Below are positions 22,153-63,920 of a DNA stretch of 64,000 nt, in pieces (positions within the stretch are counted from its first letter, which is position 1; the number at the start of each line of letters is the position of its first letter). Below the pieces are notes generated by a model. It was not told the origin of the DNA and searched no databases. It worked only from the letters and a program-made list of their open reading frames with translations. The stretch comes from a candidate division FCPU426 bacterium (GTDB lineage Bacteria > Oederibacteriota > Muellerivitia > Muellerivitales > Muellerivitaceae). Location: NCBI GenBank assembly GCA_963796105.1, contig CAWCKJ010000003.1, forward strand, positions 112,567 through 176,566, in the 5' to 3' direction. Made by a program: the position numbers and the translations under genes.

Positions 22153-22229
<77 letters not shown>

Positions 22230-27454: not shown

Positions 27455-28885
27455 ATGGTGAAACGTCAAGATACGCCTCAGAAATCAAACCCGCAAGTCC
27501 AGAAAAAAGCCAATCGAAACGGGAGAATCGCGCCCAAGATTACGGCCAATACTCCCGTAGGTATTTGCGAAGACCGCCTAACAGCTTTTGGCGGATTGTT
27601 GGCATTGGCGAAGATGTTCGACCTTCTTGATTTTGAGCGGGAATTCAAAAAACACTATGCCGCACCTAAACGCCTTCCGAATTTGGGCCACTACCGGATG
27701 GTAAGCGGCATCCTAATGCTTCTTTTCATCGGGTTCCAAAGACTTGGCCATTTTGCCTACCTGCGGGGTGAGGTCATGCTGTGCGGTTTACTGCGGGTTC
27801 CCTTGTTGCCGGTAGTGACAACTTTTTGGAGATACCTGAGGTCGCTGGGGATCGGGCAGTCGGCATCGTTGCTGAATCTGAGTGGGGCGTTACGGGCCAA
27901 GGTTTGGGGACAGGTGAAATATGCCCCCAAGAAGGTGGAGATCAACATCGATACCACCACCGCAACGGTCTACGGAAATATCGAGGGAAGCCGAAAAGGA
28001 TACAACCCCAAGCACCGGGGCAAGAAGGGACTGAGGCCCATTCTGTGTTTTCTCCAGGAAACCCGGGAATATTTGTGCGGAACCCAAAGACGCGGAACCA
28101 CCCTTAGTTCTGAGGAAGTGGCCCGCCAAATTAGACAATTCCGGCGACTCTTGCCGTCCTGTGTCCGGACGATTCTGGTGCGCGGTGACGGTGAAATGAT
28201 CGGCTGGGAAAGCGTGAAAGCCTGTGAAAAAGAAGGGTTTTCTTTCATCTTCGGGAACAAGCGGCATGACCCGCCTTTCACGAAAAAGGGTTGGTACCGC
28301 CATGGAGAACACGAATACAACGAATGTGTCCATCAACCCATAGGCTGGCAACAACCAGTCCGGTTTGTGGCGATGAGGACGCTGGATGAAAAAGCGCGGG
28401 AGAAACAATTGAGCCTTCCTGAAATGGAAGGATATGTCTACCGAATCTTCGCGACCAACTGTCTGGGAGCACCCCATCGGGTGGTTGAGGAATACGACCT
28501 GCGCGCGGATGTGGAAAACCTGATTGGTGAGGCGCAACGGGAGGGGTTATTAGCAATTCCCTCTAAGAGTTTCCAAAGCCACCATGCTTTTTTCCAGATC
28601 GTGATGCTGGCTTACAACCTCTGGAGGTGGATGAAACTAATGGTGGGCCATTGTGGAAAAGAAAAGCGACCGGGAAAGAAGCCACAGGAGAAGGAACAGA
28701 TCACCATGCCGGACCATACCCTTCGGATCGCACGTTTGAAGATGCTCTTTGTAGCCGCCCGAATCCAGTATCACGGCCATCGGGATGTGGTGAGGTATTC
28801 AATCCATGATGATAGGACAGCGGGCCTATTGGGTTTCCTCAAATACCTTGATCGAAAACGATTGGAAAGACCCAGGGCGGCCTAG
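27455..28885 (+). CDS. IS1380-family DDE transposase
   Basis: 476 aa. Blocks ..FGGLLALAKMFDLLDF.., ..KGYNPKHRGKKGLRPILCFL.. and ..ENLIGEAQREGLL..SFQSHHAFFQIVMLAYNLWRWMK are collinear with ISEcp1/IS1380-type transposases as I recall them. Confidence 0.75.
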   Translation: MVKRQDTPQKSNPQVQKKANRNGRIAPKITANTPVGICEDRLTAFGGLLALAKMFDLLDFEREFKKHYAAPKRLPNLGHYRMVSGILMLLFIGFQRLGHFAYLRGEVMLCGLLRVPLLPVVTTFWRYLRSLGIGQSASLLNLSGALRAKVWGQVKYAPKKVEINIDTTTATVYGNIEGSRKGYNPKHRGKKGLRPILCFLQETREYLCGTQRRGTTLSSEEVARQIRQFRRLLPSCVRTILVRGDGEMIGWESVKACEKEGFSFIFGNKRHDPPFTKKGWYRHGEHEYNECVHQPIGWQQPVRFVAMRTLDEKAREKQLSLPEMEGYVYRIFATNCLGAPHRVVEEYDLRADVENLIGEAQREGLLAIPSKSFQSHHAFFQIVMLAYNLWRWMKLMVGHCGKEKRPGKKPQEKEQITMPDHTLRIARLKMLFVAARIQYHGHRDVVRYSIHDDRTAGLLGFLKYLDRKRLERPRAA

Positions 28886-40664: not shown

Positions 40665-40679
40665 TAGAAAGAGGAAAAA

Positions 40680-42899
40680 TTGCCCCCGCGAAAAAAGAAA
40701 AACCAAATTGAAACAAAAAATACCAAATCTTCAAGTTCCGACTTGGAGCGTTTAGTCAACCTATCCCACCGCGACCCTCACTCCATTCTTGGCATTCATC
40801 CCGTTCCAGAAGGGGTTTTCATCCGGGTTTTCCGGCCTGAGGCCAAGTCCATTTCCGTTTTGCTGGGTAAGAGGGAAATCCAGCTCCAACCCATTGAACC
40901 CAAAGGATTGTTTGAGACGCTGTTGCCCGGGGAAAAAGAATTTCCTCCCTATCGTGTCAGGGCGGAATATCTTGGCGGAAATGTTTTCGAATATTGGGAC
41001 CCCTACGCTTTCTGGCCCACCTTGGGTGAATTGGATTTGTTCCTTTTGGGCGAGGGAAATCACGAGAGACTTTATGAAAAAATGGGAGCGCACCCCACAC
41101 GTTGGCAGGATGTCGAGGGGGTATCTTTCGCGGTCTGGGCGCCCGGCGGAAAAAGCGTCAGTGTGGTTGGGGATTTCAACGGCTGGGACGGTCGTCTGCA
41201 TATGATGCGGTGTCTGGGAGTGTCGGGCATTTGGGAAATTTTCATACCAGAACTTCCGGCAGGCACCATGTACAAATACGAGATCCGCACGCCTTCGGGC
41301 GACATCCGCATGAAAGCTGACCCTTACGCCTTCGCAACGGAAGTGCCGCCCAAGACGGCCTCGGTCGTGCACAAGACTGCCTTCCATTTTAATGATACTG
41401 TATGGATGGAGAAACGGAAGAAGAGCGACGCCCTCCGGGAACCTATGTCCATCTACGAGTTACACCCGGAATCCTGGAGGAAAGTTCCCGAGGAGGGCAA
41501 CCGTTCCCTGACCTATCGAGAAATGGCTTTCCAGTTGGCCGATTACATGAAGGAAATGGGTTTTACCCACGTTCAACTCATGCCGGTTATGGAGCATCCA
41601 TTTGGGGGGTCCTGGGGTTACCAGGTGACCTCCTATTTCGCGCCCACCTCACGGTTTGGAGATCCGGACGATTTCAAGTTTCTGGTGGACCACCTGCACC
41701 AAAACGGCATAGGGGTTCTCTTGGACTGGGTTCCAGCTCATTTCCCCAAGGACGATTTCGCCTTGGGCCGATTTGATGGCACCGCCCTTTATGAGCACAT
41801 TGACCCCCGCCAGGGGGAGCATCCGGATTGGGGTACTTATGTCTTCAATTTTGGGCGAAACGAGGTCCGCAACTTTTTGCTGTCCAGCGCTCTTTATTGG
41901 CTTTCCGAGTACCACGTGGACGGCTTGAGACTGGACGCCGTGGCCTCTATGCTTTACCTGGATTACAGCCGCCAGGATGGGGAGTGGGTCGCCAACAAGT
42001 ATGGAGGAAACGAAAATCTGGAAGCCATCTCCTTCCTCAAGCGCCTCAACGAATTGGCCCATGCCCAATTTCCGGGGGTGCTGATGATCGCCGAGGAATC
42101 CACGGCCTTTACGGGTGTGAGCAAGCCGACCTATACGGGCGGTCTGGGATTCGGATTCAAGTGGAACATGGGATGGATGCATGACACCCTTTTCTATTTC
42201 AGCCGGGACCCCATTTACCGCAGGTATAACCACAACAATCTCACCTTCGGTTTCCTCTACGCTTGGAGCGAGAATTTCATTCTGCCTCTGTCTCATGACG
42301 AAGTTGTTCATGGAAAATGTTCCCTCATCGACAAGATGCCGGGGGACCGATGGCAAAAATTTTCGGGTCTCAGGTCGCTTTTCGGTTATATGTGGGCGCA
42401 CCCAGGCAAGAAGCTCCTATTCATGGGGGGCGAGTTCGCCCAGTTCTATGAGTGGAACCATGAACAAAGCCTGGATTGGCATTTGACCCAATGGGCGGAC
42501 CATTGGCGTATGCAGGACTATATGAAGGATTTGAACCGCATCTACAAGGAAAACCCGGCCCTCTGGGAGGCGGATACGGACCCCTCCGGATTCCAATGGG
42601 TGGATGTCCACAACGCCAACGAAAATGTAGTGGCATTTTTAAGGAAATCCCCTAAAACCGGGAGACAGTTACTCTGCATCGGAAATTTCTCGCCGGTTCT
42701 CCGTCATGGTTACCGAGTGGGCTTGCCGAAGTGGGGGTATTACAAGGAAATCCTGAATTCTGATTCCGCTCACTATGGCGGAAGCAATTTCGGCAATGGG
42801 GGAGGGGTGCAATCCGAGGATATTTCCTACCAAGGGATGCCCCATTCCGCCATTGTGTTCCTCCCCCCCTTGTCGATCTTGTGGTTTGAGGCGCCCTGA
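40680..42899 (+). CDS. glgB: 1,4-alpha-glucan branching enzyme (GH13)
   Basis: N-terminal [10 protein letters not shown]. Catalytic-domain blocks [35 protein letters not shown] and MIAEEST. 739 aa. Confidence 0.9.
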
Positions 42900-43645: not shown

Positions 43646-44755
43646 ATGAAACACAATTCCTCCATGAATTCTGAAAAACAAAAAAATACAAGCAATAAAG
43701 GAACCGCGGAAAAAACGATCCTTCAACGGGAATTGGACATGTTCCACAGGATCATCGAGGGCATGAGGGAGGAGCTTTCCTACGTGGATCTCCTGAAACT
43801 CACAGTCACCTGCGTCTGCAAGGGATTGGGCTATGACCGGGCCGGAATTTTCTTGGTGGAACCAGGTGGGAAGAGTATCGCGAGGGCCATCGGAGTTGAC
43901 GCCAAAGGCCGGTTCGAGGTCGGGCATGACCATGTGGATCCTCTTTTAAATAAAAAGGGTTTCAGCACTTTTTCGGATTTGGTTTACGGCTATAAAAAGT
44001 ATTTCTATACCGCCAACCTGCTCAAGCTTTATCCCGATGCCAAGGGTGTCGAGAAAGGCGTGACCTGCAACGCGAATGTTCCGATTTCGATGGGAAAGAA
44101 ACGAATCATAGGTGTTCTGGCCGTGGATAACCTATTCACCCAACGTCAACTGACCCTCAAGGATATCGGCTCCCTCATGAATTTCGCGACCCAGGCGGGG
44201 ATGGCCATTGAGACTATCCGACTTCATGAGCAGGTTCGCGAGCTTTCGGTTACCGACGGTTTGACAAGGATTCACAATCGGAGGTATTTCGAGAGGTTCC
44301 TGGAAGATGAGGCCGCGAGAAGCAAGCGGTATAACCGCGCCTTCAGTCTTCTTTACCTGGATGTGGACCATTTCAAAAAAATCAACGACCATTACGGCCA
44401 TCCAGCCGGCGATGAAGTGCTAAAATTCATCGCATTATTTTTGCGCGCTGACCTTCGAACCATTGATGTGGTAGCCAGATTAGGAGGGGACGAATTCGGC
44501 ATCATTCTTCCCGAAATACATCCGGAGGGGGCCATGACGGTAGCCCAGCGGCTTCATCGGAAGATTGCAGAAGTCCACCTGCCAGTGGAAGCGATGGTGA
44601 AAGACCGGAAAAAGATCACACTCAGTATTGGATTAGCCACTTTTCCGGAGAATGCCTCTAGCGCCGAGGAATTGGTCAAGATGGCGGATAAGAGCCTCTA
44701 CAAAGCCAAGACCTCCGGCCGAAATCGTGTTGGACCTTTTATTAGGAAATCCTGA
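43646..44755 (+). CDS. GAF-domain diguanylate cyclase (GGDEF)
   Basis: N-terminal GAF-like sensor. C-terminal GGDEF domain with RYNRAFSLLYLDVDHFKKINDHYGH..GD and the active-site GGDEF (LGGDEFGIIL). Confidence 0.85.
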   Translation: MKHNSSMNSEKQKNTSNKGTAEKTILQRELDMFHRIIEGMREELSYVDLLKLTVTCVCKGLGYDRAGIFLVEPGGKSIARAIGVDAKGRFEVGHDHVDPLLNKKGFSTFSDLVYGYKKYFYTANLLKLYPDAKGVEKGVTCNANVPISMGKKRIIGVLAVDNLFTQRQLTLKDIGSLMNFATQAGMAIETIRLHEQVRELSVTDGLTRIHNRRYFERFLEDEAARSKRYNRAFSLLYLDVDHFKKINDHYGHPAGDEVLKFIALFLRADLRTIDVVARLGGDEFGIILPEIHPEGAMTVAQRLHRKIAEVHLPVEAMVKDRKKITLSIGLATFPENASSAEELVKMADKSLYKAKTSGRNRVGPFIRKS

Positions 44756-52688: not shown

Positions 52689-55049
52689 GTGCCAAGTATC
52701 GAGGAAGTCGCGGCGGAGGAAGAATTACGCCTGAGGGAGGAATCCCTCGAAAGACGGCGGAAATTTTCCATTTTCGCAGGAACGTTTTTATTGTTCGGCG
52801 GCTGGTTCTACTTCGCAAAAGGCTGGATGAACAGGGGAAGTTTTTTAATCCTAATTTCCTACCTTTTCTTGCTTCATGCGATGGGGCTAAAAAAATATTT
52901 CGAGAAATGGTCCCGTGGAAATTTGCTGTCCGCCGCTCCGGTTGCGGCTGGCCTGCTCGCACTCTATGAAACAACCCATATCTCACGTTTTTATTGGGGG
53001 AAAGACCCATCCTTTTGGCTCGCCGTCCACGCTGGCGCCGTGGGCGATCCCTTTTGGTCCCCTTTGCCGGTCCTTTTCGGCCAAGCCCTTTGTTTCCTGT
53101 TTCCGACCCGGACATTCACGCTTCTTCCCGTCGCGTCCGCCTTAGTTCTTTCTCTCGCCTCGATCATGGCCCTTGGGGAGTTATTCTGGCAATTGAAATC
53201 GCAAAGCATGATCAACAAGGTGATCGCAAGCCTCCTTTGCATGGCCGTCGGATTCAGCCGCCCATGGTGGGACGCGGGAACAATCGGATCTGGGATGGTC
53301 GCGTCCCTGGGGCTTGTTCTTTTCCTGACCCAAAGGAATCTTCTCAACACGGAGGAAAAACCATGGGACTGCCTTTGGATGATCCTGGGGTTACTTTTCA
53401 GCGTGCATCCCCTTTGGGGCTTGTTGGGTCTTTTCAACCACCTGATCCAGGTGGACCTTCAGGCGAAGGACTTTAAAGTCTCTTGGAGCCCCTTGGCCCT
53501 GGGACTCACTCCCTACCTTTGGGTGTATTTCCGCGCCGGAACCTTTTTCCCGTCCTGGGGCGGAAATCACCCGTTTTATTATTTCGTTAAGGAATGGCGG
53601 AGTCTTTGGGATTGGCACCGAGGCACGGATTGGGATCCCCTGAACGCGGCCGCGAGTTTCGGTGTAACCCTGGGCGTCTTATTCCTTTTTTTGGTCATTT
53701 TATGGATTTTAAACCTCCTGAAATGGAAAGTTGGCAACCCCAAAATGATCAGAGCCTCAGAGGTATGGATGTGTATTTTCGCCGCCATTTTGTCCTGGAT
53801 TTCCTCATCCTCCTCCTCGGCGCAAGCGGGGCCCACCGCCGTTTGGCTGCCAATGGGATTGGGATGCCTCCTGCTTTCATTCATCGAAAAAGGGATGGAG
53901 AGGAAACAAACGTCTTTTCTTTCCGGGACCCGCTTAGCCGCCGCGAGCGCTCTGATCCTGCTTTTATCCATCGGCCTAGCCTTTCTTCCCGGCCAGTATT
54001 TTTTTCGGTCGCAAATGACTTTTGCCGAGCAGCACGCGCTGAATCTCCTGAGGGCTTTGAATGAGAAATCCATCCTTGTTTTCCAGGATCCCTTTGAGGC
54101 GGCGGCCTGCCGGGAGACGCGCCTCATGGATCCTCTACAGACCAAGGCCGTTTTTTTGGATGAACGATACTTGGACCGGCGTTGGTACATGGCCCAATGC
54201 ATTAAAAGCCATCCGGAAGTGATTTTCTCCTCCATTCAAGGTTCCCCTGAGGAGGTCGTGAAAAACCTGGCGGAAAATAACCTTCCGGAATGGGACATCC
54301 AATGGTCCCGTTCCAGGATGCCGGATGGTTGGAAGGGCCCGGGAACTTTCCCCACAGTATTAACCCAGGAGTTCACCGGAACGGATCTTGGCACCCAACC
54401 CCCCGGGAATATCCAATTTCGCTATGACCTGACCTCGCTTCCGGACCTGGAAAACAGGTTTTCCGATCCCGCTAACCGGTACATTAGAAGATACTCGGAG
54501 GGTTTCAATGAGCTGGGCTTGGCAATGATGGTTTTGGGGCAGTACTCAGCCGCCATACGTTCCTTTGAAAGGTCGGCCCATTTGAACCCGGGCGACCCGG
54601 AACCCCGGAAATCCCTTTTCGGAATATTCGCCCAGCAAAACATCATGGAGGCTGCCCGCCTGGATTTCGAGAAAACCATCAAGGAGCATCCGGCCCGGAT
54701 CGAGGGTTTGATGCGCCAATTGGAACAAACGAAGAACAACCAGGATGAGGTTCAAACTGTCCTCTTGCTCGATCAAATGATCAAGCTGAACCAGGAACTA
54801 TCCGACGCGCAATTCCATTTGGCGATGATCTATGAAAAACAAGGCAACATATCCGAGTCGAAATCTCTCTTGGAATCCTCCGTGAAATTAAACCCACAAC
54901 GATTGGATGCCCAGTTGACTCTTGGACATTTAATGGCCAAGTTGGGGAACCGCATCAAGGCAGAGGAGGCTTTTAGGTCCGTTCTCGGCTTGGATCCACA
55001 GAATAAAGAGGCCCAAAAGGAACTTTGGAAACTCTTGAACCAACCGTAA
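52689..55049 (+). CDS. DUF2723-like polytopic membrane protein with C-terminal TPR repeats (paralog of 14478..16583)
   Basis: Multi-TM N-terminal half with ..LAVHAGAVGDPFWSPLP.., analogous to the DUF2723 HxxGYPLY region. C-terminal TPR repeats. The start is uncertain. Confidence 0.5.
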   Translation: MPSIEEVAAEEELRLREESLERRRKFSIFAGTFLLFGGWFYFAKGWMNRGSFLILISYLFLLHAMGLKKYFEKWSRGNLLSAAPVAAGLLALYETTHISRFYWGKDPSFWLAVHAGAVGDPFWSPLPVLFGQALCFLFPTRTFTLLPVASALVLSLASIMALGELFWQLKSQSMINKVIASLLCMAVGFSRPWWDAGTIGSGMVASLGLVLFLTQRNLLNTEEKPWDCLWMILGLLFSVHPLWGLLGLFNHLIQVDLQAKDFKVSWSPLALGLTPYLWVYFRAGTFFPSWGGNHPFYYFVKEWRSLWDWHRGTDWDPLNAAASFGVTLGVLFLFLVILWILNLLKWKVGNPKMIRASEVWMCIFAAILSWISSSSSSAQAGPTAVWLPMGLGCLLLSFIEKGMERKQTSFLSGTRLAAASALILLLSIGLAFLPGQYFFRSQMTFAEQHALNLLRALNEKSILVFQDPFEAAACRETRLMDPLQTKAVFLDERYLDRRWYMAQCIKSHPEVIFSSIQGSPEEVVKNLAENNLPEWDIQWSRSRMPDGWKGPGTFPTVLTQEFTGTDLGTQPPGNIQFRYDLTSLPDLENRFSDPANRYIRRYSEGFNELGLAMMVLGQYSAAIRSFERSAHLNPGDPEPRKSLFGIFAQQNIMEAARLDFEKTIKEHPARIEGLMRQLEQTKNNQDEVQTVLLLDQMIKLNQELSDAQFHLAMIYEKQGNISESKSLLESSVKLNPQRLDAQLTLGHLMAKLGNRIKAEEAFRSVLGLDPQNKEAQKELWKLLNQP

Positions 55050-55245: not shown

Positions 55246-57549
55246 ATGGATCTGCAAGAAATCCTTAATTCCATGGTGAATAAAAAGGCTTCAGACGTCC
55301 ATTTGAAGGCGGGCGCCCCCCCTCTTTTCCGCATTGACGGCGATTTAATCCCCCAAAGTGAAACCATTCTTTCCGCGCAGGAATTGGCGGAAGTCGCGTC
55401 TTATTTGATGGATGAGAAGCAGCAAAAACTGTTTTTCGAGGACCACCACGAGGTCGACCTGGCTTACGCCGTGGAGGGTTTGGCCCGTTTCAGGACGAAC
55501 GCCATGTGGCAGAGGGGTCTTCCGGAAATCATCATGCGGGTTATTCCCCAGATCGTCCCGCGGATTGAGGACATCAACATGCCGACCTCGGTGTTGAAGC
55601 AAATCGCCATGGAACCCCGAGGGTTGGTCCTGGTCACGGGAATAACGGGTTCAGGGAAATCAACCACCCTCGCGGCCCTCATCCACGAGATCAACGTGAA
55701 CCGCTCCGCCCATATCGTGACCGTTGAAGATCCCATCGAGTTTGTCCACCAGGACGCCAAATCCAGCATGACTCAAAGGGAGGTGGGACTAGACACTGAA
55801 AACTTTAAAACGGCCTTGAAATTCGTGTTGCGGCAGGACCCCGATGTCATACTTATCGGGGAAATGCGCGACGTGGAGACGGTCCAGGCCGCCATTACGG
55901 CCGCAGAAACCGGCCATTTGGTGTTTTCCACCCTGCATACTATGGATACCATTCAAACGATAGAGAGAATTTTGGACTTTTTCCCGCCCGATCAGCAAAA
56001 CCAAATGAGGATCCAGTTATCCAATACCTTGCGAGCCGTTATCTCTCAACGCTTGGTTTCTAAGGCCGACGGCGCCGGTGTCGTTCCAGCCTGTGAAATC
56101 ATGGTCGTGACACCCACCATCAAATCCCTTATCGCCGATGATAAAATCAGCTCGATTCGCGGTTATATCGCGGAGGGTCATAGCCAATATGGAATGCAGA
56201 CTTTCGACCAATCCTTGATCGAACTGGTTCGAAAGGGCTTCATTACCCGGGAAAGCGCCATGGAACAGGCCACGTCCCCCAGCGAAATTGATCTTGGGTT
56301 GAAGGGGATTTCATCCTCCAAGGCCTCCGCCCAGTCCTTGATTTCACAAATGGAGACTTCTCAACAAAAAGAGCGGGTTTCCGGCTGGCTAAAGCGGGCG
56401 CAGGATCTTTATGAAAGAAGGCGCAATGACGAGGCAAAAGCGGAGCTAAAACGCATTCTGCAGGAAATGCCGGAACATAAGGAGGCGAACGCGCTGATGG
56501 CCCGTTTGCGTGAAATGGAGGACAAAACCGACAAGAAAAAAGACGCCTCATCCTCGGTTAAAACCGCTCTTCAATTGTACCGGGAAGGCAAGTTCCAGGC
56601 CGCTATCCTGGAATTTCAAAAAGCCTTGGAAATAGACCCGGGAAACAAGCAGGCCGAAGCTTATATCCGCTCCATTCAAACCGAAATGGACAACCGCGTT
56701 CGCGCGAGGGAGTTTGTCCAGGCTGGGATGCAGAAACAACAGCAAAATGACATGGTGTCCGCCCTGAGCCAATTGGAACAAGCGCTCATTTTGGATCCTG
56801 ATAATGAGCAGGCGCAGGTGCTGCAAAAGGACATTAAAAACACTCTTCAAAAGGACCAAGCCAGGGAAAAAGCCAAGGAACAAAACCAAATCGCCATTGA
56901 TTTATACAAGGCGGGTGATTTACTGGGCGCTCTAGTCGCATGGAATAAGGCCTATGAGCTGAATTCCGAGCTGGAAGAAGTCTCGCGCTATTTGCAGCAG
57001 GGGATCGCCAAACTTCTGTCCTTCGGGGTGGAAGGGCTTGAGGGAAATCCGGAAACCCAGAACATCCTAGCGCTCTTTGAGCAGGGAGTTCGGAGTTACG
57101 TGCGAAGCGATTTCCAGACCGCGATTGAGTTTTTTAAAAAAGCCCTCGCCAAGGCCGACGGCAACGCCTATTTAAACGCCTACCTGCAAAAGTCCCTGCA
57201 GATGGAGGAACAGCAAGTCGAAGAATTGTTCCATGAGGGTTTAAAGGCCCAGGAGTCGGGCGACTTGGCCGCGGCGCTAAAAGAGTACAATAAGATCTTG
57301 AGGCTCTCGCCGGGGCACCCGGAAACCGTGAAACAACTCGGCGTCTTAAAAGCGACGATTCAGCAGAAAACCGAGGCTTTGTACACCGAGGGTAAAGTTT
57401 ATTTCGACCAGAATGACATGGATAAGGCCGTTCGTATTTGGGAAAAAATACTTTACCTCGATCCTTCCAATGAACGCGCTAAAAAGAAAATTGAAGAAGC
57501 AAAAATCAAAAAAAGCACCTTATCCGGTATCTTTTCAAAGATAAACTAG
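55246..57549 (+). CDS. pilT: type IV pilus retraction ATPase PilT fused to a C-terminal TPR-repeat domain
   Basis: Residues 1 to about 350 form a complete PilT: Walker A GITGSGKSTTLAAL, Asp box, Walker B DVILIGEMRD, His box TLHT, and PilT-specific AIRNLIRE-like region. These are followed by about 400 aa of TPR repeats. Confidence 0.8.
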   Translation: MDLQEILNSMVNKKASDVHLKAGAPPLFRIDGDLIPQSETILSAQELAEVASYLMDEKQQKLFFEDHHEVDLAYAVEGLARFRTNAMWQRGLPEIIMRVIPQIVPRIEDINMPTSVLKQIAMEPRGLVLVTGITGSGKSTTLAALIHEINVNRSAHIVTVEDPIEFVHQDAKSSMTQREVGLDTENFKTALKFVLRQDPDVILIGEMRDVETVQAAITAAETGHLVFSTLHTMDTIQTIERILDFFPPDQQNQMRIQLSNTLRAVISQRLVSKADGAGVVPACEIMVVTPTIKSLIADDKISSIRGYIAEGHSQYGMQTFDQSLIELVRKGFITRESAMEQATSPSEIDLGLKGISSSKASAQSLISQMETSQQKERVSGWLKRAQDLYERRRNDEAKAELKRILQEMPEHKEANALMARLREMEDKTDKKKDASSSVKTALQLYREGKFQAAILEFQKALEIDPGNKQAEAYIRSIQTEMDNRVRAREFVQAGMQKQQQNDMVSALSQLEQALILDPDNEQAQVLQKDIKNTLQKDQAREKAKEQNQIAIDLYKAGDLLGALVAWNKAYELNSELEEVSRYLQQGIAKLLSFGVEGLEGNPETQNILALFEQGVRSYVRSDFQTAIEFFKKALAKADGNAYLNAYLQKSLQMEEQQVEELFHEGLKAQESGDLAAALKEYNKILRLSPGHPETVKQLGVLKATIQQKTEALYTEGKVYFDQNDMDKAVRIWEKILYLDPSNERAKKKIEEAKIKKSTLSGIFSKIN

Positions 57550-57659: not shown

Positions 57660-58058
57660 ATGAAAAAATTGATCATAGGCATCTTGATATTAATCGGCTT
57701 CTTTTTTATGGCCCTTAATACATCCATGCTCGCTGACCAGGCGTTGAAATGGGTGCAGGAAAATCCCAAGGATCCGCATGCTCCTAAAGTCCTATATGAA
57801 GCTGCCCGTTGGTGCGACATCATGGGCGACAATAAAAAAGCTTTGGAGGTTTATTGGGATCTTTACCAACAATATCCCGGCAGTTCCTCCCTCTGCGCCG
57901 CGTCTCTCTATTACAGCGCTCAAATCCAGGTGGATACGAGTGTTTCGAAAAAACTCGCGGATCCTTTTTTGAAGATTATATTAGACCAGTATTTTAGCGA
58001 GACTGAGTGGGTGGAAAAAGCCAGAAAGTTACAGGACGAGGTGAATTATGTTCGCTGA
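57660..58058 (+). CDS. small secreted protein with a single TPR-like repeat
   Basis: Signal peptide MKKLIIGILILIGFFFMALN. Helical TPR-like core. Confidence 0.4.
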   Translation: MKKLIIGILILIGFFFMALNTSMLADQALKWVQENPKDPHAPKVLYEAARWCDIMGDNKKALEVYWDLYQQYPGSSSLCAASLYYSAQIQVDTSVSKKLADPFLKIILDQYFSETEWVEKARKLQDEVNYVR

Positions 58059-59022
58059 AAAGAATAAATATATTGGTTTGGCCGGTTTGGTCTGCCTGAT
58101 AAGCATGGGTTTGGCTTCATCAGGGATTTGTAAAACCACCGAGGGGGAGGATGAAAATGACCACCTATCCCCGCCCCCTACCCCTATATCCGCTGATCGA
58201 TACCGAAAAATGAATCAGGCGGATCAAGAAAAATCCGTTAAAACGCTGAAAACCGCCAAGAAGGAAAAATCGGAAGTTTCATCCGCAACCTCCCCCGCCG
58301 CCCAGGTAAGGGCGGGGGATAATATAAGCGTCTATTATTTCACGAAAGCTGGTTTTGTAATAACACAGCCATCCCAATTACCTTCATTGGGTAAAGTGGT
58401 TGGGGACCTTAGCGAGACGAACGCCTCCGGCCCGGGCGTTTTAAGTTACAGCCAAGCGAAAAAACCTTATATTGAATATTCCTCCAAGGCTGAGTTAAAT
58501 ATAGACGATTTACTGGTTGTTTATTCGATTTCTCCGGAAAATATTAATGAACCCGAATCGAATTTTTCCGGTTTTCTGGTTGAAAACAGGGCTATCGTAA
58601 AGGTGATTTCTGTCCAAAAGAAGTATTGCCAAGTGGAGATCGTTAAATCCTTCGTTGCTTTTCACGCGGGAGACCGTGTCCGGCCATACAGCGATGAGCT
58701 TCAAAGATGGACAAAGGCTCAAACTAAAAAACCACTTCCCTCAAATGAAATCCATTGTTATGTATGCGGTGGAGAGGTTCAAAAAACAGCTTATTCCCAG
58801 TCGGATTTCATCATCTTGACCGCCGGCACGAACAAGGGTGTGGTTGAGGGACAAGTATTTCATCTAAAACAATTAGTTAAGAACGTGGAATTGAGGGAGG
58901 ATCTTCATGCCTTCCGGGGTTCGGCGCGCGTATTTTTCGCGGGATCCAATTACTCCATGGCCCAAATTCTTTCCAGCAACGAATCCATCCAAAAAGGGTT
59001 TGAGGCGGTTTACAATCCCTGA
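58048..59022 (+). CDS. hypothetical exported protein
   Basis: N-terminal hydrophobic segment IGLAGLVCLISMGLASSG. No family assignable. Confidence 0.4.
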   Translation: MFAEKNKYIGLAGLVCLISMGLASSGICKTTEGEDENDHLSPPPTPISADRYRKMNQADQEKSVKTLKTAKKEKSEVSSATSPAAQVRAGDNISVYYFTKAGFVITQPSQLPSLGKVVGDLSETNASGPGVLSYSQAKKPYIEYSSKAELNIDDLLVVYSISPENINEPESNFSGFLVENRAIVKVISVQKKYCQVEIVKSFVAFHAGDRVRPYSDELQRWTKAQTKKPLPSNEIHCYVCGGEVQKTAYSQSDFIILTAGTNKGVVEGQVFHLKQLVKNVELREDLHAFRGSARVFFAGSNYSMAQILSSNESIQKGFEAVYNP

Positions 59023-59045: not shown

Positions 59046-59903
59046 ATGGATTCCTTGAAAAACAAAACAGTTGAAGAAGACCCCTTTTTTTTAAAGATTC
59101 TTGAACATGTATTGGCCGAAAAAGGATTCGACGGCACGCATTACAAAATCAATTATATCAAGAGAAGGGTGGCAGTCCGAATGCGGGCATCCGGAACCCG
59201 CGATTACTTGGAATATTATCAGGCGTTAAAAAAAAACCGGGATGAAGTATCACTGCTGTTTGACCGTTTTACCATTCATGTGACGGATTTTTTCAGGGAT
59301 GCCGAAGTTTACAATTCCATGAAGTTAAAAGTACTTCCTGAAATTTTTCGGCAACCGGGATCCAGCCTTAAGATTTGGTGCGCCGGATGCAGCACGGGGC
59401 AAGAGCCTTATTCCATCGCCATCACTTTGAGGGAAAACAGCCCCAAGTACGCGGAGAAGAATATTAAAATCATCGCCACCGATATTGACGATGCCAGCAT
59501 TCGTTTTGCCGAGCGGGGGACCTATCCCATTGCTTCACTGAAAAAACTCTCGAGCCAACAAATGAGCAAGTGGTTTTTGAACGAGGGGGAAAAAGCGCGC
59601 ATATCCCAGGAATTGAGGGACTCGGTAAGGTTCAAAACGCATGATTTACTTGGACGTTGGGATTCGGATTTTTCGGATTTTAACCTTATATTATGTAGGA
59701 ATCTCCTTATTTACCTTTCGGCGGTCCGCCAGCAAAAACTTTATCAAGGGTTTCACAAAGCATTGCGTCCGGATGGGTATTTGATTCTTGGTTTGACGGA
59801 AACATTAATGGGCGGGGCTCGTGAATTATTCCGCTGCGTTGACGTGAAGAACCGAATCTACAAAGTTTGCGGTTCAAAAACGCCTTCTGACAGAGGGGCT
59901 TGA
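59046..59903 (+). CDS. cheR: CheR-type protein-glutamate O-methyltransferase
   Basis: Collinear with E. coli CheR: N-terminal helical domain; ..FFRD...F..L..... followed by IWCAGCSTGQEPYSIAI (AdoMet motif I); ..ATDID...L..A..G.Y; ..D.I.CRN.LIY.. Confidence 0.85.
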   Translation: MDSLKNKTVEEDPFFLKILEHVLAEKGFDGTHYKINYIKRRVAVRMRASGTRDYLEYYQALKKNRDEVSLLFDRFTIHVTDFFRDAEVYNSMKLKVLPEIFRQPGSSLKIWCAGCSTGQEPYSIAITLRENSPKYAEKNIKIIATDIDDASIRFAERGTYPIASLKKLSSQQMSKWFLNEGEKARISQELRDSVRFKTHDLLGRWDSDFSDFNLILCRNLLIYLSAVRQQKLYQGFHKALRPDGYLILGLTETLMGGARELFRCVDVKNRIYKVCGSKTPSDRGA

Positions 59904-59909
59904 GGGAAA

Positions 59910-61091
59910 ATGGATAAGGCACAGGATCATATTAATCTCGGAACCGCTTTCACTCTTTCTAAACGGTATGACGACGCGATTGTGGAGTTTAAAAAAGCGC
60001 TGGTCTTGAGCCCATCGGATGGTGAAATCCTTTTTCAATTGGGGGGATTATGCACCAATATCGGGAATTACGAGGAAGCTGAGAATTATTACCACGACGC
60101 GCTATCCATCAACCCGATGAATTTAAACGCGCATTGCAAATTGGGTTTGTTATTGGAAGTCCAGGGCAAGTACCAGGAATCCATACAAGAATTTCAAAAA
60201 GCCACTGAATTGAATCCGACTGACGCGGGCCTTTACAACAACCTGGGAAATGTCTATTCGAAAATGGGCAGGTATCAGGAAGCCATTGATCAGTTTAAAA
60301 AATACACTGGCATCAATCCGAGCAACGCGGAAATTTTCTTCAAAATGGGTTTTTCATTTGAACAGTTGGGCAGGCTTGATGAGGCCATCAACTCCTATGA
60401 ACGAGCTCTAGTCCTAAATCCCCGACACGCGGCTGTTTACTCCATCCTGGGAAACGCTTACGCGAAAAAAGGGGATTATCAGGAGGCCATATCGCTTTAT
60501 CAACAGGCCCTTCGATTAAATCCTCAAGAGCCGGAAGTCCATTTAAAATTGGGGGTGGCCTTCATGTCGCTCGGCCAATACGACAAGGCCTTGTCTGTTT
60601 TGGAGGAGGCGCGTCAAAAAAACCCGCAGAATGCCGAGGTTTATTTGAAGTTTGGGATGATTTACGCGGGCCGCGGCCAGCATGAGGAGGCCATTCAAAT
60701 GTACCGAAAGGTCATGGAGATTAATCCCCATGACGCAAGCGTCCATAATGTCTTGGGTTACATTTATGACCGGCAGGGAGACGCGGAAAAAGCCATGGAG
60801 GAATACCGCGCCGCCAAACTCATCAACCCCAATGACATATTAATCTTGGATAATCTCGGGAACTTGAATTATAAACAAGGCCATTTTGATGAGGCGGCCC
60901 AGGATTTCGAGAGCTTGCTTCAATTGAATCCGCTGCATAGTGATGCCCACGCGAAGCTGGGAAATGTTTATTTAAAGAAAGGCGAAAAGAACAAGGCCGT
61001 CACCCACTGGGAAAAAGCCTTGGAACTTGATCCGTCCAATGAGATCCTCAAGAACAATTTAAGAATTGTCAAAGGAAGTCCCACGGCATGA
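59910..61091 (+). CDS. TPR-repeat protein (about 11 repeats)
   Basis: Regular 34-aa repeats with the W-LG-Y / A-F-A-P signature across the whole 393 aa. Confidence 0.8.
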   Translation: MDKAQDHINLGTAFTLSKRYDDAIVEFKKALVLSPSDGEILFQLGGLCTNIGNYEEAENYYHDALSINPMNLNAHCKLGLLLEVQGKYQESIQEFQKATELNPTDAGLYNNLGNVYSKMGRYQEAIDQFKKYTGINPSNAEIFFKMGFSFEQLGRLDEAINSYERALVLNPRHAAVYSILGNAYAKKGDYQEAISLYQQALRLNPQEPEVHLKLGVAFMSLGQYDKALSVLEEARQKNPQNAEVYLKFGMIYAGRGQHEEAIQMYRKVMEINPHDASVHNVLGYIYDRQGDAEKAMEEYRAAKLINPNDILILDNLGNLNYKQGHFDEAAQDFESLLQLNPLHSDAHAKLGNVYLKKGEKNKAVTHWEKALELDPSNEILKNNLRIVKGSPTA

Positions 61092-61726
61092 TGAAGACCC
61101 AGGAAAAATCCCTCGGTGAATTATTGCGTCAGGCTGGGAAAATCACCTCCCGCCAAATTCAAGTGGCGTTATCGGAACAAAAAATAACCCATGAACCCAT
61201 TGGGAAAATTCTTGTTTCACTTGGTTTTGTGGAGGAGAGGGATATTTTGCAGGTCATGGAAGGCATGGTGGTATTGACGTTCCGCATGGATAAAGAGCTG
61301 TTCGGGGTGGAAACTTTCCGCGCGCGAGAGGTCTTGAAATACACTGTATTAAAACCATTTGAAAATAAAGTTGGAAATTGGGAAGGGCATCTTGCCCTTC
61401 GCGGTGAGGAAATCCCAGTTTTGTCATTCAGGAAATTCCTTGAGGTTCCCGCGACGGGTCCCGTGGAACGGAGCTGGTTCATTATCCTTGAGAAAAAGGG
61501 GAGGCCTTTCGCCCTTTGGGTGGACGAGGTCAGGGAAGTAACCCGCTTTAAAATCGATCAAATCGAGCCGGTTCCGCTTTATCTTTTGGGAAAAAAAACA
61601 GAATTGTATTATTGTTTAGGTAAAATAAAAGATGACCTTTACTCGATCATCAATCCGGATAATTTAGTGGAAGATGTTCCCGAAAAGCCGCCGTTAATTG
61701 GAAAAAACCATGCCAGCTCAACCTGA
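61088..61726 (+). CDS. CheW-like coupling protein with N-terminal MshEN/T2SSE_N-type putative c-di-GMP-binding motif
   Basis: The N-terminal 60 aa carry tandem motifs LGELLRQAGKITSRQIQVALSEQ and IGKILVSLGFVEERDILQVM, matching the MshEN consensus RLGxxLxxxGxIxxxxLxxALxxQ. The rest is a CheW-like domain (VLTFRMDKELFGVETFRAREVL..). Confidence 0.6.
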   Translation: MMKTQEKSLGELLRQAGKITSRQIQVALSEQKITHEPIGKILVSLGFVEERDILQVMEGMVVLTFRMDKELFGVETFRAREVLKYTVLKPFENKVGNWEGHLALRGEEIPVLSFRKFLEVPATGPVERSWFIILEKKGRPFALWVDEVREVTRFKIDQIEPVPLYLLGKKTELYYCLGKIKDDLYSIINPDNLVEDVPEKPPLIGKNHASST

Positions 61727-63920
61727 AACAAAAACCATCCGTGAATTAGCCCACGGAAGCGATCAAGGCGACGCGTCCACCCACAATAATTTGGGGGTTT
61801 TTTATTATTCCAAGGGCATGTACGCGGAAGCTATCAAGGAATTTAAAACTGCGCTTGAGATCGATCCCGAGAACACCCAAGCATTGGAGAATCTGAAGGC
61901 CGTCAACCGGCACACGGGCCTTTACGACCGTTCGATTGAAGCCTACAAAAAATCGACCCAAATGTTTCCATCGGATTCCGAGGCTAGTTATAACCTCGCC
62001 AATTCCTACCGGTATACGGGTCAATATGAAAAAGCAATCGTTGAATACCAGAAAACCATCGCCTTAAATCCAGAACATCCTTTCGCTAGAAACTACCTTG
62101 GTATCACTTACAAGTGCACGGGCCAGTTGGAGGAGGCCATTAAGGAATTCAAGAAAGCCATCGATGACAACCCCTATTACGCTGATCTTCATAACAATTT
62201 AGGCGAGGTTTATTACAAAAAAGCCATGTTGAATGAGGCTCTCGTTGAGTTTAAAAAGGCCATTTCTCTTAACCCTGACTATGCCATCGCGCACTACAAC
62301 TTGAGCTTCGTTTATGGCGATAAGAACATGCTGGAAGAGGCCGAGAGGGAGTTCAAGAAAGCGGTGGATTTGAACCCTAATTTCGGGCAGGGAGCGCAGG
62401 CGCTTTTGTCGATTGAGCGCGCGAAAAGCATGGAGGAGAAAGTCGCCGAGAAAATCGCTTCCGCCCCCCCCGCTCCCTCCGTGGAAACATACCTTAGTTT
62501 AGCGTCCGCTTACAGCGGGAAAGGACTCCTGGATGAGGCCATCAGGGAATATAAAAGAGCCATTGAGGCCATGCCGAATGAGGAAAAATCCTACCGGGCT
62601 TTGGGTGAAATCTACCTACAGAAGGGCCTGATCGAGGACGCGTTAATGTCGTTCCAGAAGGCTATCGATATTTCACCCACCGACATCGAGAACTATATAC
62701 AGCGGGGGATAGCCCTTCGGGAATTGAACCGTTGCGACGAATCGGTGAGCGAGTTTAAAAAAGCCATAGAATTAACGCAGAATTCCAGCAAGGCTCATTT
62801 TGAGATGGGAGTCACCTACTTCAAAATGGGTGAAACTGAAAATGCCACGAGGGAAATTAGAAAAGCCCTGGAAATAGACCCTGAGAACGCTGAGGCGCAT
62901 TATTATCTTGGCGTTTACTATTACAAAGTCAATCTTTACGACGAGGCCATCCGGGAGATCACCCAGGCCGTGGAGTTGGACGTCTCCATCGCCTCAAGCG
63001 CTGAGGCCCTTATTTATTTGGGATTGGCCCTGGCTGACAAAGGCCGTTTTGAGGAAGCCATCGCAGAGTATAAGAAGGCGATGGAATTGGACCCTAAAAA
63101 CCCGATTATCCATAATAGTTTGGGAGTGGCCTATAAAAACGCCGGAATGATCGATGATGCCATCCAGCATTATCAGAAGGCCATTTCCATCAACCCTCAA
63201 TACGCCAAGGCCTATAATAATTTGGGAGTTGTTTATTTTAAAATGAGCCAATATGAGAAAGCGATCGAAACATTCAAAAAAGCTGTCGAAATAGAGCCGG
63301 AATATAAAACGGCTCAAAATAACCTTTCAGTGGCCATGAAAAAGCGGATCGTTCTTTCCGAGGCATCGGAGGTTTTGATTAAGCAAATTATGGCTGACCC
63401 GGAAAATTATGCCTTGCATCAAAACCTCGGCATGCTTTACAAAAATACGGGGCAACACTCGGAAGCCGTACGCGAGTTCCAGGAAACCATACGCTTGAAT
63501 CCGAAAAACCGGGAAGCTTTAACCCAACTCGGCGACACTCATCTCCTGCTGGGGCATTTGGATGAAGCTGTCAAGGTGCTGGCTAAGGCAATTTCCTGCG
63601 ACCCTACCCATCCGGACGCGCATATGCAATTGGGCAAGGTTTATATCCAACGCCAATGGTGGGATGAGGCTTTGGTTGAGTTCAAAAAGAGCCTGGAAGG
63701 AAATAAGAATTCCCCGGAGGTATATTATTATCTCGGCCAAGTCTACCGGTTCAAAGGCTGGTGGGACGACGCCATCCAAAAAATGCAAATGTACCTGGAT
63801 TCAGCCAATACCGAGGAGGACAAGGTCATACAGGCCATCGATATCATCCAGCAAATCCAAGTTTGGCGAAAAGAACTCCAAGTTTCCCCGAGCGGGGACA
63901 AGGCGAAATATATAAAATAG
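61698..63920 (+). CDS. large TPR-repeat protein (about 20 repeats)
   Basis: 740 aa of back-to-back TPR repeats. Overlaps the upstream gene. Confidence 0.8.
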   Translation: MEKTMPAQPETKTIRELAHGSDQGDASTHNNLGVFYYSKGMYAEAIKEFKTALEIDPENTQALENLKAVNRHTGLYDRSIEAYKKSTQMFPSDSEASYNLANSYRYTGQYEKAIVEYQKTIALNPEHPFARNYLGITYKCTGQLEEAIKEFKKAIDDNPYYADLHNNLGEVYYKKAMLNEALVEFKKAISLNPDYAIAHYNLSFVYGDKNMLEEAEREFKKAVDLNPNFGQGAQALLSIERAKSMEEKVAEKIASAPPAPSVETYLSLASAYSGKGLLDEAIREYKRAIEAMPNEEKSYRALGEIYLQKGLIEDALMSFQKAIDISPTDIENYIQRGIALRELNRCDESVSEFKKAIELTQNSSKAHFEMGVTYFKMGETENATREIRKALEIDPENAEAHYYLGVYYYKVNLYDEAIREITQAVELDVSIASSAEALIYLGLALADKGRFEEAIAEYKKAMELDPKNPIIHNSLGVAYKNAGMIDDAIQHYQKAISINPQYAKAYNNLGVVYFKMSQYEKAIETFKKAVEIEPEYKTAQNNLSVAMKKRIVLSEASEVLIKQIMADPENYALHQNLGMLYKNTGQHSEAVREFQETIRLNPKNREALTQLGDTHLLLGHLDEAVKVLAKAISCDPTHPDAHMQLGKVYIQRQWWDEALVEFKKSLEGNKNSPEVYYYLGQVYRFKGWWDDAIQKMQMYLDSANTEEDKVIQAIDIIQQIQVWRKELQVSPSGDKAKYIK

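Follow-up and report, generated by a model that had tools for sequence, protein, structure and literature searches.

Within the 64,000-nucleotide stretch of candidate division FCPU426 DNA analysed here (the window), an open reading frame on the forward strand (61088..61726, +) raises the question of whether a chemotaxis coupling protein could itself serve as a receptor for c-di-GMP. According to the original prediction, its product carries two MshEN-type motifs in tandem, directly ahead of a CheW-like domain. The translation of the frame matches exactly the motif strings quoted there (residues 9–31 and 38–57).

A tandem MshEN motif joined directly to a complete CheW domain

The MshEN_N::CheW fusion gene encodes 212 amino acids plus a stop codon and has 295 homologous clusters. 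Its ATG at 61088 overlaps the stop codon (TGA) of the TPR gene upstream in the tetranucleotide ATGA and is preceded, at a distance of about 9 nt, by the ribosome-binding site AAAGGAAG, which together fix the start codon. The N-terminus that results is common to the homologues.

Residues 8–60 follow the 24+5+24 layout of MshEN_N and align without gaps to residues 7–59 of V. cholerae MshE. The match to the NCBIfam model NF053729 (‘c-di-GMP_motif, MshE-related’; E=7.4e-16, 57.7 bits, cutoff 38) and the alignment to MshE delineate motif I (S8–Q31, 24 amino acids, SLGELLRQAGKITSRQIQVALSEQ; 61109..61180, +) and motif II (P37–M60, 24 amino acids, PIGKILVSLGFVEERDILQVMEGM; 61196..61267, +), which are separated by a linker (K32–E36, 5 amino acids; 61181..61195, +) equal in length to that of MshE. 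With phmmer, the fusion protein matches PilF (6f8l, E=1.2e-9) and MshE (5htl, E=7e-5). A search with the PF05157 (T2SSE_N/MshEN) profile, by which the original prediction was to be checked, gave no match even at E<=10. We attribute this silence to the absence of MshEN_C: the fusion protein possesses the N-subdomain only, and the other half covered by the model is missing. Given the strong NF053729 and fold matches, we do not take the miss as a refutation. As a control, the non-binding GSPII-A domain of PilF was scored with NF053729 and reached 55.3 bits, which is also above the cutoff (the fusion protein scores 57.7–61.9 bits). The match to this model therefore demonstrates homology, not ligand binding, and we dropped its score as evidence for the latter.

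The AlphaFold2 model of the fusion protein (pLDDT 83.6) places helices at residues 9–15, 21–34, 38–44 and 50–58, after which strand 1 of the CheW domain begins at residue 60, so the two domains have no linker between them and the end of motif II overlaps this strand. The predicted N-terminal module is a four-helix bundle that superposes on ligand-bound MshE: in Foldseek comparisons, its 51 residues fit c-di-GMP-bound MshE (5htl_B) to 0.8 Å at 39% identity, and the holo form of PilF GSPII-B (8pdk) to 1.0–1.2 Å.

The CheW domain comprises residues 62–196 (61271..61675, +), as delimited by a PF01584 match, alignment and Foldseek. The PF01584 profile, the second check attached to the original prediction, scored these residues at 76.4 bits (cutoff 23.5; E=2.1e-21), and the match spans model positions 2–136 of 138. 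With the model covered from end to end, a truncated, FrzB-like CheW is ruled out. Structural matches to 2qdl, 6s1k_C, 8c5v_E and 2ch4, all with the two-subdomain β-barrel fold, extend over 135–138 alignment columns at 2.1–2.3 Å (E=1e-12 to 1e-11). Residues E81, R105 and G100, invariant in a broad family alignment, correspond to E38, R62 and G57 of E. coli CheW, which we take to be residues of the CheA and receptor interfaces. The domain is followed by a C-terminal tail (residues 197–212; 61676..61723, +) of weak conservation and low model confidence. In relatives, the fusion CheW is a divergent paralogue, about 26–27% identical to the canonical CheW of 171–180 amino acids encoded in the same operon. 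That a tandem MshEN-type motif is joined directly to a CheW-like domain is thus borne out by the NF053729 and PF01584 matches, the AlphaFold2 model and the Foldseek comparisons.

Both halves of the protein can be set against characterised structures. With MshE (5HTL) and T. thermophilus PilF GSPII-B (8PDK), the N-terminal module shares the 24+5+24 motif, the four-helix bundle, the Leu2/Gly3 pair and the hydrophobic triads (0.8–1.2 Å over 51–52 residues, 36–39% identity), but it carries a CheW domain in place of MshEN_C and the ATPase, has Ser or Pro instead of R/K/L at position 1 of its motifs, and closes motif II with Met rather than Gln. With the CheW proteins of E. coli (2HO9/6S1K), Thermoanaerobacter (2QDL) and T. 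maritima (1K0S), the fusion protein has in common the full fold, the Glu/Arg pair and its encoding in a che operon, to which it adds a 60-residue N-terminal module of the sensor type attached without a linker.

A chemosensory operon with pilus ATPase and TPR genes

All genes of the window described below are on the forward strand. In the main clade, the conserved block starts with a gene for a PilT/PilU-family ATPase (residues 3–347) followed by about 420 amino acids of TPR repeats (55246..57549, +), assigned by profile, homology and conserved loci and hereafter called PilT::TPR; it is 68–98% identical across loci, and 71–91% among complete copies from other genomes. Between it and the CheR gene are two conserved genes with no assigned function (57660..59022, +): u132, whose 132-residue product is hydrophobic at the N-terminus and gives a weak YbgF/TPR-like match, and u324, whose 324-residue product also has a hydrophobic N-terminus. 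The CheR methyltransferase (CheR_N plus the CheR SAM-binding domain; 59046..59903, +) belongs to the same operon as the fusion gene. An all-TPR protein of 393 amino acids (59910..61091, +) is always encoded directly upstream of the fusion gene, with an overlap of 4 nt, and displays 58–91% identity across main-clade loci and 35–38% in a deep subclade. Another all-TPR protein, of 736 amino acids (61710..63920, +), is always encoded directly downstream; its likely start, ATG 61710, makes it overlap the fusion gene by 17 nt, an arrangement that homologous loci share.

The conserved order, PilT::TPR, u132, u324, CheR, TPR, fusion, TPR, P-II, CheY, CheC, CheD, CheW, CheY, CheB, CheA, CheX, is the same in 24/24 genome loci and also in the further contigs from metagenomes that were read. 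The window, which ends at position 64,000, contains CheR and contains no CheA, canonical CheW or MCP. The che genes downstream of it are deduced from relatives, in the closest of which the fusion protein is 72% identical; CheY, CheC, CheD, CheW, CheY, CheB, CheA and CheX are present in every relative with enough sequence. The operon of the main clade contains no MCP gene; one locus of the deep subclade has an MCP of 437 amino acids encoded in its cluster.

Ten of the 12 distinct loci that have room for it carry a GGDEF gene after CheX. Among the genes of the organism is one for a cyclase whose GGDEF and RxxD motifs are intact. The GGDEF protein of the operon is not a WspR-like REC-GGDEF protein, as its N-terminal region of about 215 amino acids contains no REC domain and has no Pfam match. 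In the deep subclade, the core of the block is kept, with GAF-GGDEF and REC-GAF-HD-GYP genes nearby. This subclade does not represent another phylum: proteins named candidate division FCPU426 match its Rho at 95% identity. An Rfam scan for c-di-GMP riboswitches returned two tRNAs only, and a promoter and terminator scan of the 52–64 kb region produced counts at chance level, which are uninformative.

Family conservation and the c-di-GMP-binding determinants

The MshEN_N-CheW architecture occurs in at least 295 protein clusters, and all lineages that could be named are candidate division FCPU426. Conservation was counted in an alignment-based census of 122 full-length members. This census replaced a strict regular expression for the published consensus, which missed most family members because their position 7 is Arg. 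Relative to the query, the 122 members are 79% identical in the N-terminal region and 52% in the CheW domain; for the 30 most distant members these values are 56% and 31%, respectively. Outside the general consensus, the family has its own set of invariant polar residues (Q5, K/R7, Q23, E36, K40, D52).

The determinants of c-di-GMP binding fall into two groups with different fates. In MshE and PilF, the backbone amides of Gly3 and residue 4 recognise the bases by contacting guanine O6/N7, and the Leu2-Gly3 backbone amides contact the phosphate and guanine N7. The Leu2-Gly3 equivalents of the fusion protein are L9-G10 in motif I and I38-G39 in motif II. Both glycines, G10 and G39, are invariant (122/122), as is L28; the positions of L9, I24, I38, I53 and M57 are always hydrophobic, and positions 17 and 21 of both motifs (I24, L28, I53, M57) are always I, L, V or M. 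All eight Gly and hydrophobic positions on which affinity in MshE chiefly depends are thus retained in every one of the 122 members. In V. cholerae MshEN (VcMshEN), mutating such positions causes a more than 10-fold loss of affinity or no binding, and Ile is acceptable at the triad positions according to the PilF GSPII-A resurrection study. The inter-motif linker keeps its 5 residues in the main clade, and one distant homologue has 7 instead.

The second group comprises the residues that stack on or cap the guanine. In validated binders, position 1 is R, K, L, M or F and stacks on guanine. Position 1 of motif I in the family is Ser8 (S in 118 of the 122 members, T in 3, A in 1), and its counterpart in motif II, Pro37, is P in 111, K in 9 and L in 2, so the query has no R/K/L stacking residue in either motif. 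Ser and Pro cannot stack on guanine as the residues of the validated binders do, and none of the validated binders in the literature searched has Ser at position 1. Q31, at position 24 of motif I, is present in 121/122 members, and position 24 of motif II (residue 60) is Met or Leu. Of the consensus RLGxxLxxxGxIxxxxLxxALxxQ, on which the original prediction relied, the Gly and hydrophobic positions therefore hold in the fusion protein, but the R is replaced by Ser or Pro and the Gln of motif II by Met or Leu.

How damaging such replacements are varies among characterised domains. In VcMshEN, changes of R9, D12 and Q32 cost at most 5-fold in affinity, and MshEN_N alone (residues 1–65 of MshE) binds c-di-GMP with a KD of 0.35 µM. 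PilF GSPII-B binds it at 6 nM without any Arg, and PilF GSPII-C is a binder despite Pro at position 1 of motif II. The native PilF GSPII-A has Ala at the Gly position of motif II; in its resurrected form, binding was lost once Ser had been put back at position 1 of motif II, together with Ala at position 3, and both motifs needed Gln at position 24. Binding of c-di-GMP by the fusion protein thus appears plausible from its sequence. The claim that it is a coupling protein directly responsive to c-di-GMP is nevertheless weaker than first proposed, because of the Ser/Pro and Met/Leu substitutions, the PF05157 miss and the passing of a non-binder by NF053729.

A possible c-di-GMP input into the coupling protein

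We consider it somewhat probable, on balance, that this chemosensory-operon gene encodes a second, specialised coupling protein in which a minimal, 53-residue MshEN_N, the self-sufficient c-di-GMP-binding part of MshE/PilB-type ATPases, is mounted rigidly on the first strand of a complete CheW, and that c-di-GMP acts through it on the pathway in the way set out below. A further step, which we put forward only tentatively, is that c-di-GMP gates this protein: the array scaffold would itself be a second-messenger receptor that changes receptor-kinase coupling, with the Ser-x-x-Glu of motif I acting as a helix N-cap that pre-forms the site without an Arg lid.

From the observed architecture, fold, conservation and operon context we infer a most likely mechanism, in which uptake of the ligand, entry into the array and the way in which the output shifts are all predicted. 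The CheW domain would place the fusion protein in the receptor-CheA-CheW lattice beside the canonical CheW, which is encoded six genes downstream. One c-di-GMP would be held by the N-terminal module, in part via the amides of the L9/G10 and I38/G39 backbone and in part by two triads of hydrophobic residues (L9, I53 and M57; I38, I24 and L28). As helix 4 runs straight into strand 1 of the CheW domain, ordering of the bundle by the ligand could be felt there and alter receptor-CheA coupling; alternatively, partners such as the two flanking TPR proteins might be recruited. In either case, cellular c-di-GMP would tilt the output of a pathway whose operon also encodes the PilT::TPR pilus-retraction ATPase, and the GGDEF cyclase that ends the operon in most relatives is a possible local source of the ligand.

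A different explanation, unlikely in our estimate although it deserves serious weight, is that the module is degenerate: like PilF GSPII-A and XpsE, it would have lost nucleotide binding and would serve as a ligand-independent docking or oligomerisation module that could, for example, hold the CheW paralogue on PilT::TPR or on the TPR proteins encoded on either side of it. An interface with another protein would then account for its high conservation, and the invariant Q5, K/R7, Q23, E36, K40 and D52 could mark that interface; the TPR neighbours, whose genes overlap the fusion gene, are conserved even better (58–91%, main clade). Both stacking residues have become Ser and Pro and the motif II Gln has become Met, GSPII-A owes its inability to bind in part to Ser at position 1 and the loss of Gln24, and NF053729 passes non-binders. 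GSPII-A, however, differs in having Ala at the Gly of motif II, whereas in this family both Gly3 residues are invariant and all six positions of the triads remain hydrophobic even where overall identity is down to 30%. The small cost (at most 5-fold) of Arg and Gln substitutions in VcMshEN, the retention of the 5-residue linker in the main clade and the presence of a diguanylate cyclase as a conserved operon member also argue against decay.

The substitutions fall on guanine-capping residues, and the 97%-conserved Ser at position 1, together with the invariant K/R at position 0, looks like a fixed signature rather than random decay; both would suit an MshEN fold that has been retuned to 3′3′-cGAMP, c-di-AMP, pGpG or a linear dinucleotide. 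We regard such a change of ligand as improbable, as the amide geometry of Gly3 and residue 4 and both Gly are kept, the conserved neighbour is a GGDEF enzyme, and the literature examined reports no MshEN-type domain with a different ligand. An ordinary CheW with an extension that resembles MshEN by chance, or owing to a mis-called start, would fit the fact that Pfam reports CheW only and that the databases name the family proteins plain ‘CheW’ throughout. This explanation has a negligible probability and is effectively refuted by the E=7e-16 match to the motif model NF053729, the 0.8 Å superposition onto MshE, the finding that the N-terminal extension is the best-conserved part in 122 sequences, and the start codon, which is fixed by the ATGA overlap and the ribosome-binding site and yields the same N-terminus as in homologues.

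The combination had been called unusual. In the literature searched, the MshEN_N-CheW architecture is not described; the founding MshEN paper (Wang et al. 2016) does not list it in its table of architectures, nor is it one of the fusions named in a 2023 survey of CheW architectures. The comparison covers the named fusions of that survey, whose Fig. S10 holds 30 further, undescribed architectures. Within these bounds the combination is as unusual as predicted. Previously known are MshEN_N within CheA (Aeromonas veronii EKB11881), which binds c-di-GMP in vitro with a KD of 2.6 µM, and (MshEN_N)2-CheX of Geobacter lovleyi (Glov_2742), for neither of which a physiological role was reported (Wang et al. 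2016). These fusions likewise carry the receptor module in a core chemotaxis protein, but there the host is a kinase or phosphatase and here it is a coupling protein; MshEN_N on CheW is what is new relative to the literature searched. The roughly 300 clusters bear the plain name ‘CheW’ because the Pfam MshEN model misses modules made of the N-subdomain only. This is an annotation blind spot, in which Pfam overlooks the module and the NCBIfam motif model cannot separate binders from non-binders.

The same logic, in which an input domain for signals is anchored at the array by a CheW domain, is seen in CheV (CheW-REC), CheW-CZB and the Treponema denticola CheWS, a CheW-CheR-like protein in which the CheW domain anchors a small-molecule (SAM) sensor. 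The input domain of the fusion protein differs from theirs in being N-terminal, 53 amino acids long and of the MshEN type, and its presumed ligand is c-di-GMP instead of phosphoryl groups, zinc or SAM.

Chemotaxis arrays and c-di-GMP, both central to how bacteria make decisions, are known to meet at the receptors, CheR, the motor and, in vitro only, CheA. The routes include PilZ chemoreceptors (Azospirillum Tlp1), MapZ-CheR1 of P. aeruginosa, YcgR and the Caulobacter Cle proteins; they tune chemotactic signalling or motor output, use PilZ domains or Arg-rich CheY extensions, and target a receptor, CheR or the motor. To our knowledge, none of the PilZ-MCP, MapZ, YcgR and Cle routes has its receptor on the coupling protein. 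If the tentative c-di-GMP-gated reading is correct, a receptor module in the coupling protein would give the second messenger a new way in, with array connectivity itself as its point of action, and the operon cyclase could close a local feedback loop from array output via the cyclase and c-di-GMP to CheW. The conserved Ser variant would extend or delimit the MshEN consensus and, should it bind, a Ser-x-x-Glu start without the canonical Arg lid would represent a new sequence class of MshEN receptors. As the fusion protein is small (212 amino acids) and soluble and its set of partners is encoded in one operon, the idea is directly testable even though the phylum is uncultured.

Pilus-linked chemosensory systems with TPR components are exemplified by Frz of M. 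xanthus (where FrzF is a CheR-TPR protein) and Pil-Chp of P. aeruginosa. The locus described here resembles them in tying a che operon to type IV pilus ATPases and in having TPR modules near CheR; it differs in that separate TPR genes flank the CheW fusion, PilT itself carries TPRs and the operon includes P-II.

Architecture and predicted fold of the fusion protein

The fusion gene (61088-61726, + strand) is a real ORF of 212 residues, and its translation agrees with the sequence quoted in the original prediction. This ORF overlaps the preceding gene by the four bases ATGA, which contain its own ATG and that gene's stop codon, and AAAGGAAG is found about 9 nt upstream. For the downstream TPR gene the most probable start is ATG 61710, within the last 17 nt of the fusion ORF, as in homologous loci.

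The original prediction had proposed a tandem MshEN motif followed by a CheW-like domain, and both were recovered. Residues 62-196 match the Pfam CheW model PF01584 (E=2.1e-21; score 76.4 bits, cutoff 23.5), which is covered from end to end. Residues 9-58 match NF053729 ('c-di-GMP_motif, MshE-related'), a dedicated NCBIfam model of 53 positions (E=7.4e-16; score 57.7 bits, cutoff 38). A sequence search against solved structures returned PilF, an ATPase with three GSPII domains (E=1.2e-9), a number of CheW structures (E=1e-8 to 2e-7) and MshE (5HTL, E=7e-5). Because MshE residues 7-59 align to the N-terminus of the fusion without gaps, the register of the motifs is settled: motif I spans S8-Q31, the linker K32-E36 and motif II P37-M60, which is the same 24+5+24 layout as that described for MshEN_N, the N-subdomain of MshEN.

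The AlphaFold2 model (input of 26 homologues, mean pLDDT 83.6, pTM 0.74) has four N-terminal helices (residues 9-15, 21-34, 38-44 and 50-58), the last of which runs directly, with no linker, into strand 1 of CheW at residue 60. Foldseek comparison with the PDB superimposes the N-terminal 51-52 residues on c-di-GMP-bound MshE (5htl_B) at 0.8 Å with 39% identity and on holo GSPII-B, one of the three MshEN-type domains of Thermus thermophilus PilF, at 1.0-1.2 Å; the C-terminal part matches CheW structures at 2.1-2.3 Å over 135-138 alignment columns. As modelled, the protein holds only the N-subdomain of MshEN, and CheW stands where classical MshEN proteins have MshEN_C and their ATPase. Because MshEN_C is missing, PF05157 (T2SSE_N/MshEN), the Pfam model with which the motif was to be checked, gave no match in the fusion protein, even at E≤10.

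In the CheW domain, E81, R105 and G100 align with E38, R62 and G57 of E. coli CheW, which we take to be residues of the CheA/receptor interfaces, and are unchanged throughout a broad alignment; V148 and V151 align with V105 and V108. FrzB is a truncated CheW-like protein; the CheW domain of the fusion, by contrast, is complete.

Distribution and conservation of the family

A first database search found 105 clusters with at least 50% identity to the fusion, nearly all of them of 209-213 aa and annotated merely as 'CheW', and a search with a profile of distant members raised the number to 295 (E≤1e-10). An exhaustive HMM search of 1.84 billion representatives added, among its best 150 matches, no more than a handful of clusters (50% identity) in which the full-length architecture is present. 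Considering that (i) the carriers among species-representative genomes either bear the title 'candidate division FCPU426' or are soil and peat MAGs that have no classification or a wrong label, and (ii) the Rho protein of the deepest subclade, whose fusion copies are 33-38% identical, is 95% identical to NCBI proteins named FCPU426, the fusion appears, as far as the searches reach, to be an invention of a single candidate phylum and to be conserved across it.

In an alignment of 122 full-length members, mean identity to the query is 79% for the N-terminal module (residues 5-60) versus 52% for the CheW domain, and 56% versus 31% in the 30 most distant members. Within the protein, constraint is therefore strongest on this module, which is under selection; G10, G39, L28, Q5, D52 and G59 are invariant.

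The fusion joins two known domains in an undescribed yet conserved combination. The founding MshEN paper reports MshEN_N within CheA and fused to CheX, a CheW fusion not being among its architectures, and full-text literature searches returned no description of an MshEN-CheW fusion. A 2023 CheW-architecture survey names CheV, CheA, 2x and 3x CheW, CheW-CZB and CheWS and counts 30 undescribed Pfam architectures; in it the fusion would show as plain CheW because Pfam misses the 53-residue module. CheWS, a SAM sensor anchored through CheW, is the closest mechanistic analogue, and precedent for c-di-GMP binding by a core chemotaxis protein exists in vitro.

Determinants of c-di-GMP binding

In MshEN domains, the guanines stack on two hydrophobic triads, each composed of Leu2 of one motif and Leu17 and Leu21 of the other. 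The backbone amides of Leu2 and Gly3 contact the phosphate as well as guanine N7, the Arg at position 1 forms a cap over the base, and Gln24 makes a backbone contact. In the Vibrio cholerae MshE domain, mutation of any conserved hydrophobic residue causes a >10-fold loss and G11L or G40I abolishes the ligand effect; the cost of substitutions at R9, D12 and Q32 is at most 5-fold. PilF GSPII-B, whose position-1 residues are Lys and Leu, binds at 6 nM, GSPII-C binds with Pro at position 1 of motif II, the Aeromonas veronii CheA insert (Met/Lys at position 1) binds at 2.6 µM, and Bd2402 (Phe at position 1 of motif I) reportedly binds at 0.04 µM in the source table versus 0.4 µM in its footnote. 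MshEN_N 1-65 by itself binds at 0.35 µM. In resurrected PilF GSPII-A, any binding required that both motifs carry Gln24 and that position 1 be other than Ser, and high affinity required Gly3.

The NF053729 match bears on homology only, since GSPII-A, a non-binder, scores 55.3 bits against the cutoff of 38; in the same control, the fusion module scores 61.9 bits and MshE 84.1. This model is curated as a 'cyclic di-GMP-binding domain', and with it the non-binder GSPII-A outscores the binder GSPII-C (51.8 bits); annotations based on it are not to be taken as ligand-binding evidence.

All eight Gly/hydrophobic positions are present in the fusion (L9, G10, I24, L28, I38, G39, I53, M57) and kept in 122 of 122 members, and Q31, the Gln24 of motif I, is retained; with slightly better than even confidence, we predict that the module binds c-di-GMP. 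The main rival explanation, that the module is a degenerate, ligand-free docking device, is possible but rather doubtful. It draws on position 1, which is Ser in motif I of 97% and Pro in motif II of 91% of the members, and on the last residue of motif II, which is Met or Leu in this family; Ser at position 1 was not found in any validated MshEN binder of the literature compared. Helix 1 opens with S8-L9-G10-E11, a match to the Ser-x-x-Glu helix-capping box of the GSPII-A resurrection literature, and this putative box might fix the helix start, free the L9 and G10 amides and so compensate for the absent Arg lid. That a module with these conserved positions binds another nucleotide ligand is improbable, and chance resemblance to MshEN is excluded. 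The original reading of a coupling protein directly responsive to c-di-GMP is partly supported, namely in its architecture and fold, and its ligand binding is carried forward as a prediction.

Operon context and proposed role

The che-containing block is headed by a PilT/PilU-family ATPase fused to C-terminal TPRs of about 420 aa (55246-57549, +; TIGR01420, 457.8 bits, residues 3-347), as in every main-clade FCPU426 locus, where this protein is 68-98% identical; we know of no description of such a PilT::TPR fusion. Two conserved genes (57660-59022, +) separate it from CheR (59046-59903) in the main clade only; their products, of 132 aa (weak YbgF/TPR-like match) and 324 aa, are hydrophobic at the N-terminus and fall into no assigned family. 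A 393-aa TPR protein (59910-61091) lies directly upstream of the fusion gene and a 736-aa one (61710-63920) directly downstream, after which the window ends. The flanking TPR proteins are 58-91% identical in the main clade, versus 44-66% for CheR, and also exceed the fusion in conservation; because the reading frames of both overlap the fusion gene, their arrangement suggests that the three proteins may form a stoichiometric complex.

The downstream che genes are known from relatives, in which gene order was read in 24 genome loci and metagenome contigs. In every relative with enough sequence, the downstream TPR gene is followed by P-II, CheY, CheC, CheD, a canonical CheW of 171-180 aa, CheY, CheB, CheA and CheC/X. 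The deep subclade keeps the core from CheR, TPR, fusion and TPR through P-II, CheY, CheC, CheD, CheW and CheY to CheB; GAF-GGDEF genes lie upstream of it, and one lineage has a REC-GAF-HD-GYP gene on the downstream side. P-II (GlnB-like, 112 aa; locus L002 12849-13187, also L003, L005, L030, L032 and L033) is a fixed member in both deep clades, preceded by the 740-aa TPR protein and followed by the first CheY; a P-II gene within a che operon is unusual. A GGDEF gene comes next after CheX in 10 of 12 distinct loci extending far enough (L002 19606-20642, L005 20007-20639 and eight others), the N-terminal ~215 aa of its product giving no Pfam match and no REC domain; the L003/L024 subclade lacks it and has a different unannotated gene there. 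The main-clade operon has no MCP gene; an unclassified MAG whose fusion copy is 35% identical (L029) encodes, between CheD and CheW, a 437-aa MCP in which no sensor domain is recognised (14669-15982).

On the best-supported reading, the fusion serves a pilus-linked pathway as a specialised second coupling protein, by which a minimal c-di-GMP-receptor module is anchored in the chemosensory array. We infer that the CheW domain would hold the MshEN_N module in the chemosensory array, where ligand would order the helix bundle and, through the rigid helix-to-strand junction, could alter CheW coupling or partner recruitment in either direction.

Elsewhere in the window, 43646-44755 (+) encodes a stand-alone diguanylate cyclase whose GGDEF active site and RxxD I-site are intact. 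The gene is outside the conserved operon, some 16 kb upstream of the che genes' block; the N-terminal ~200 aa of the cyclase have no Pfam match and look GAF-like by eye only. An Rfam scan of the window found no c-di-GMP riboswitch, its sole matches being two adjacent tRNA genes (22153-22225 and 22274-22347, +), and promoter and terminator scans gave counts no better than chance. A DDE transposase (DDE_Tnp_1_4/DDE_Tnp_1) is encoded at 27455-28885 (+), and two proteins of glycogen metabolism, one with GH57 + DUF3536 and next to it the branching enzyme GlgB, at 38211-42899 (+). Large TPR proteins are unusually dense (877-2994, 6896-10066, 14478-16583 and 52689-55049); that at 14478-16583 is a TMEM260-like O-mannosyltransferase::TPR fusion, and relatives have genes of a similar kind (TMEM260/PMT_2::TPR) just upstream of PilT::TPR.
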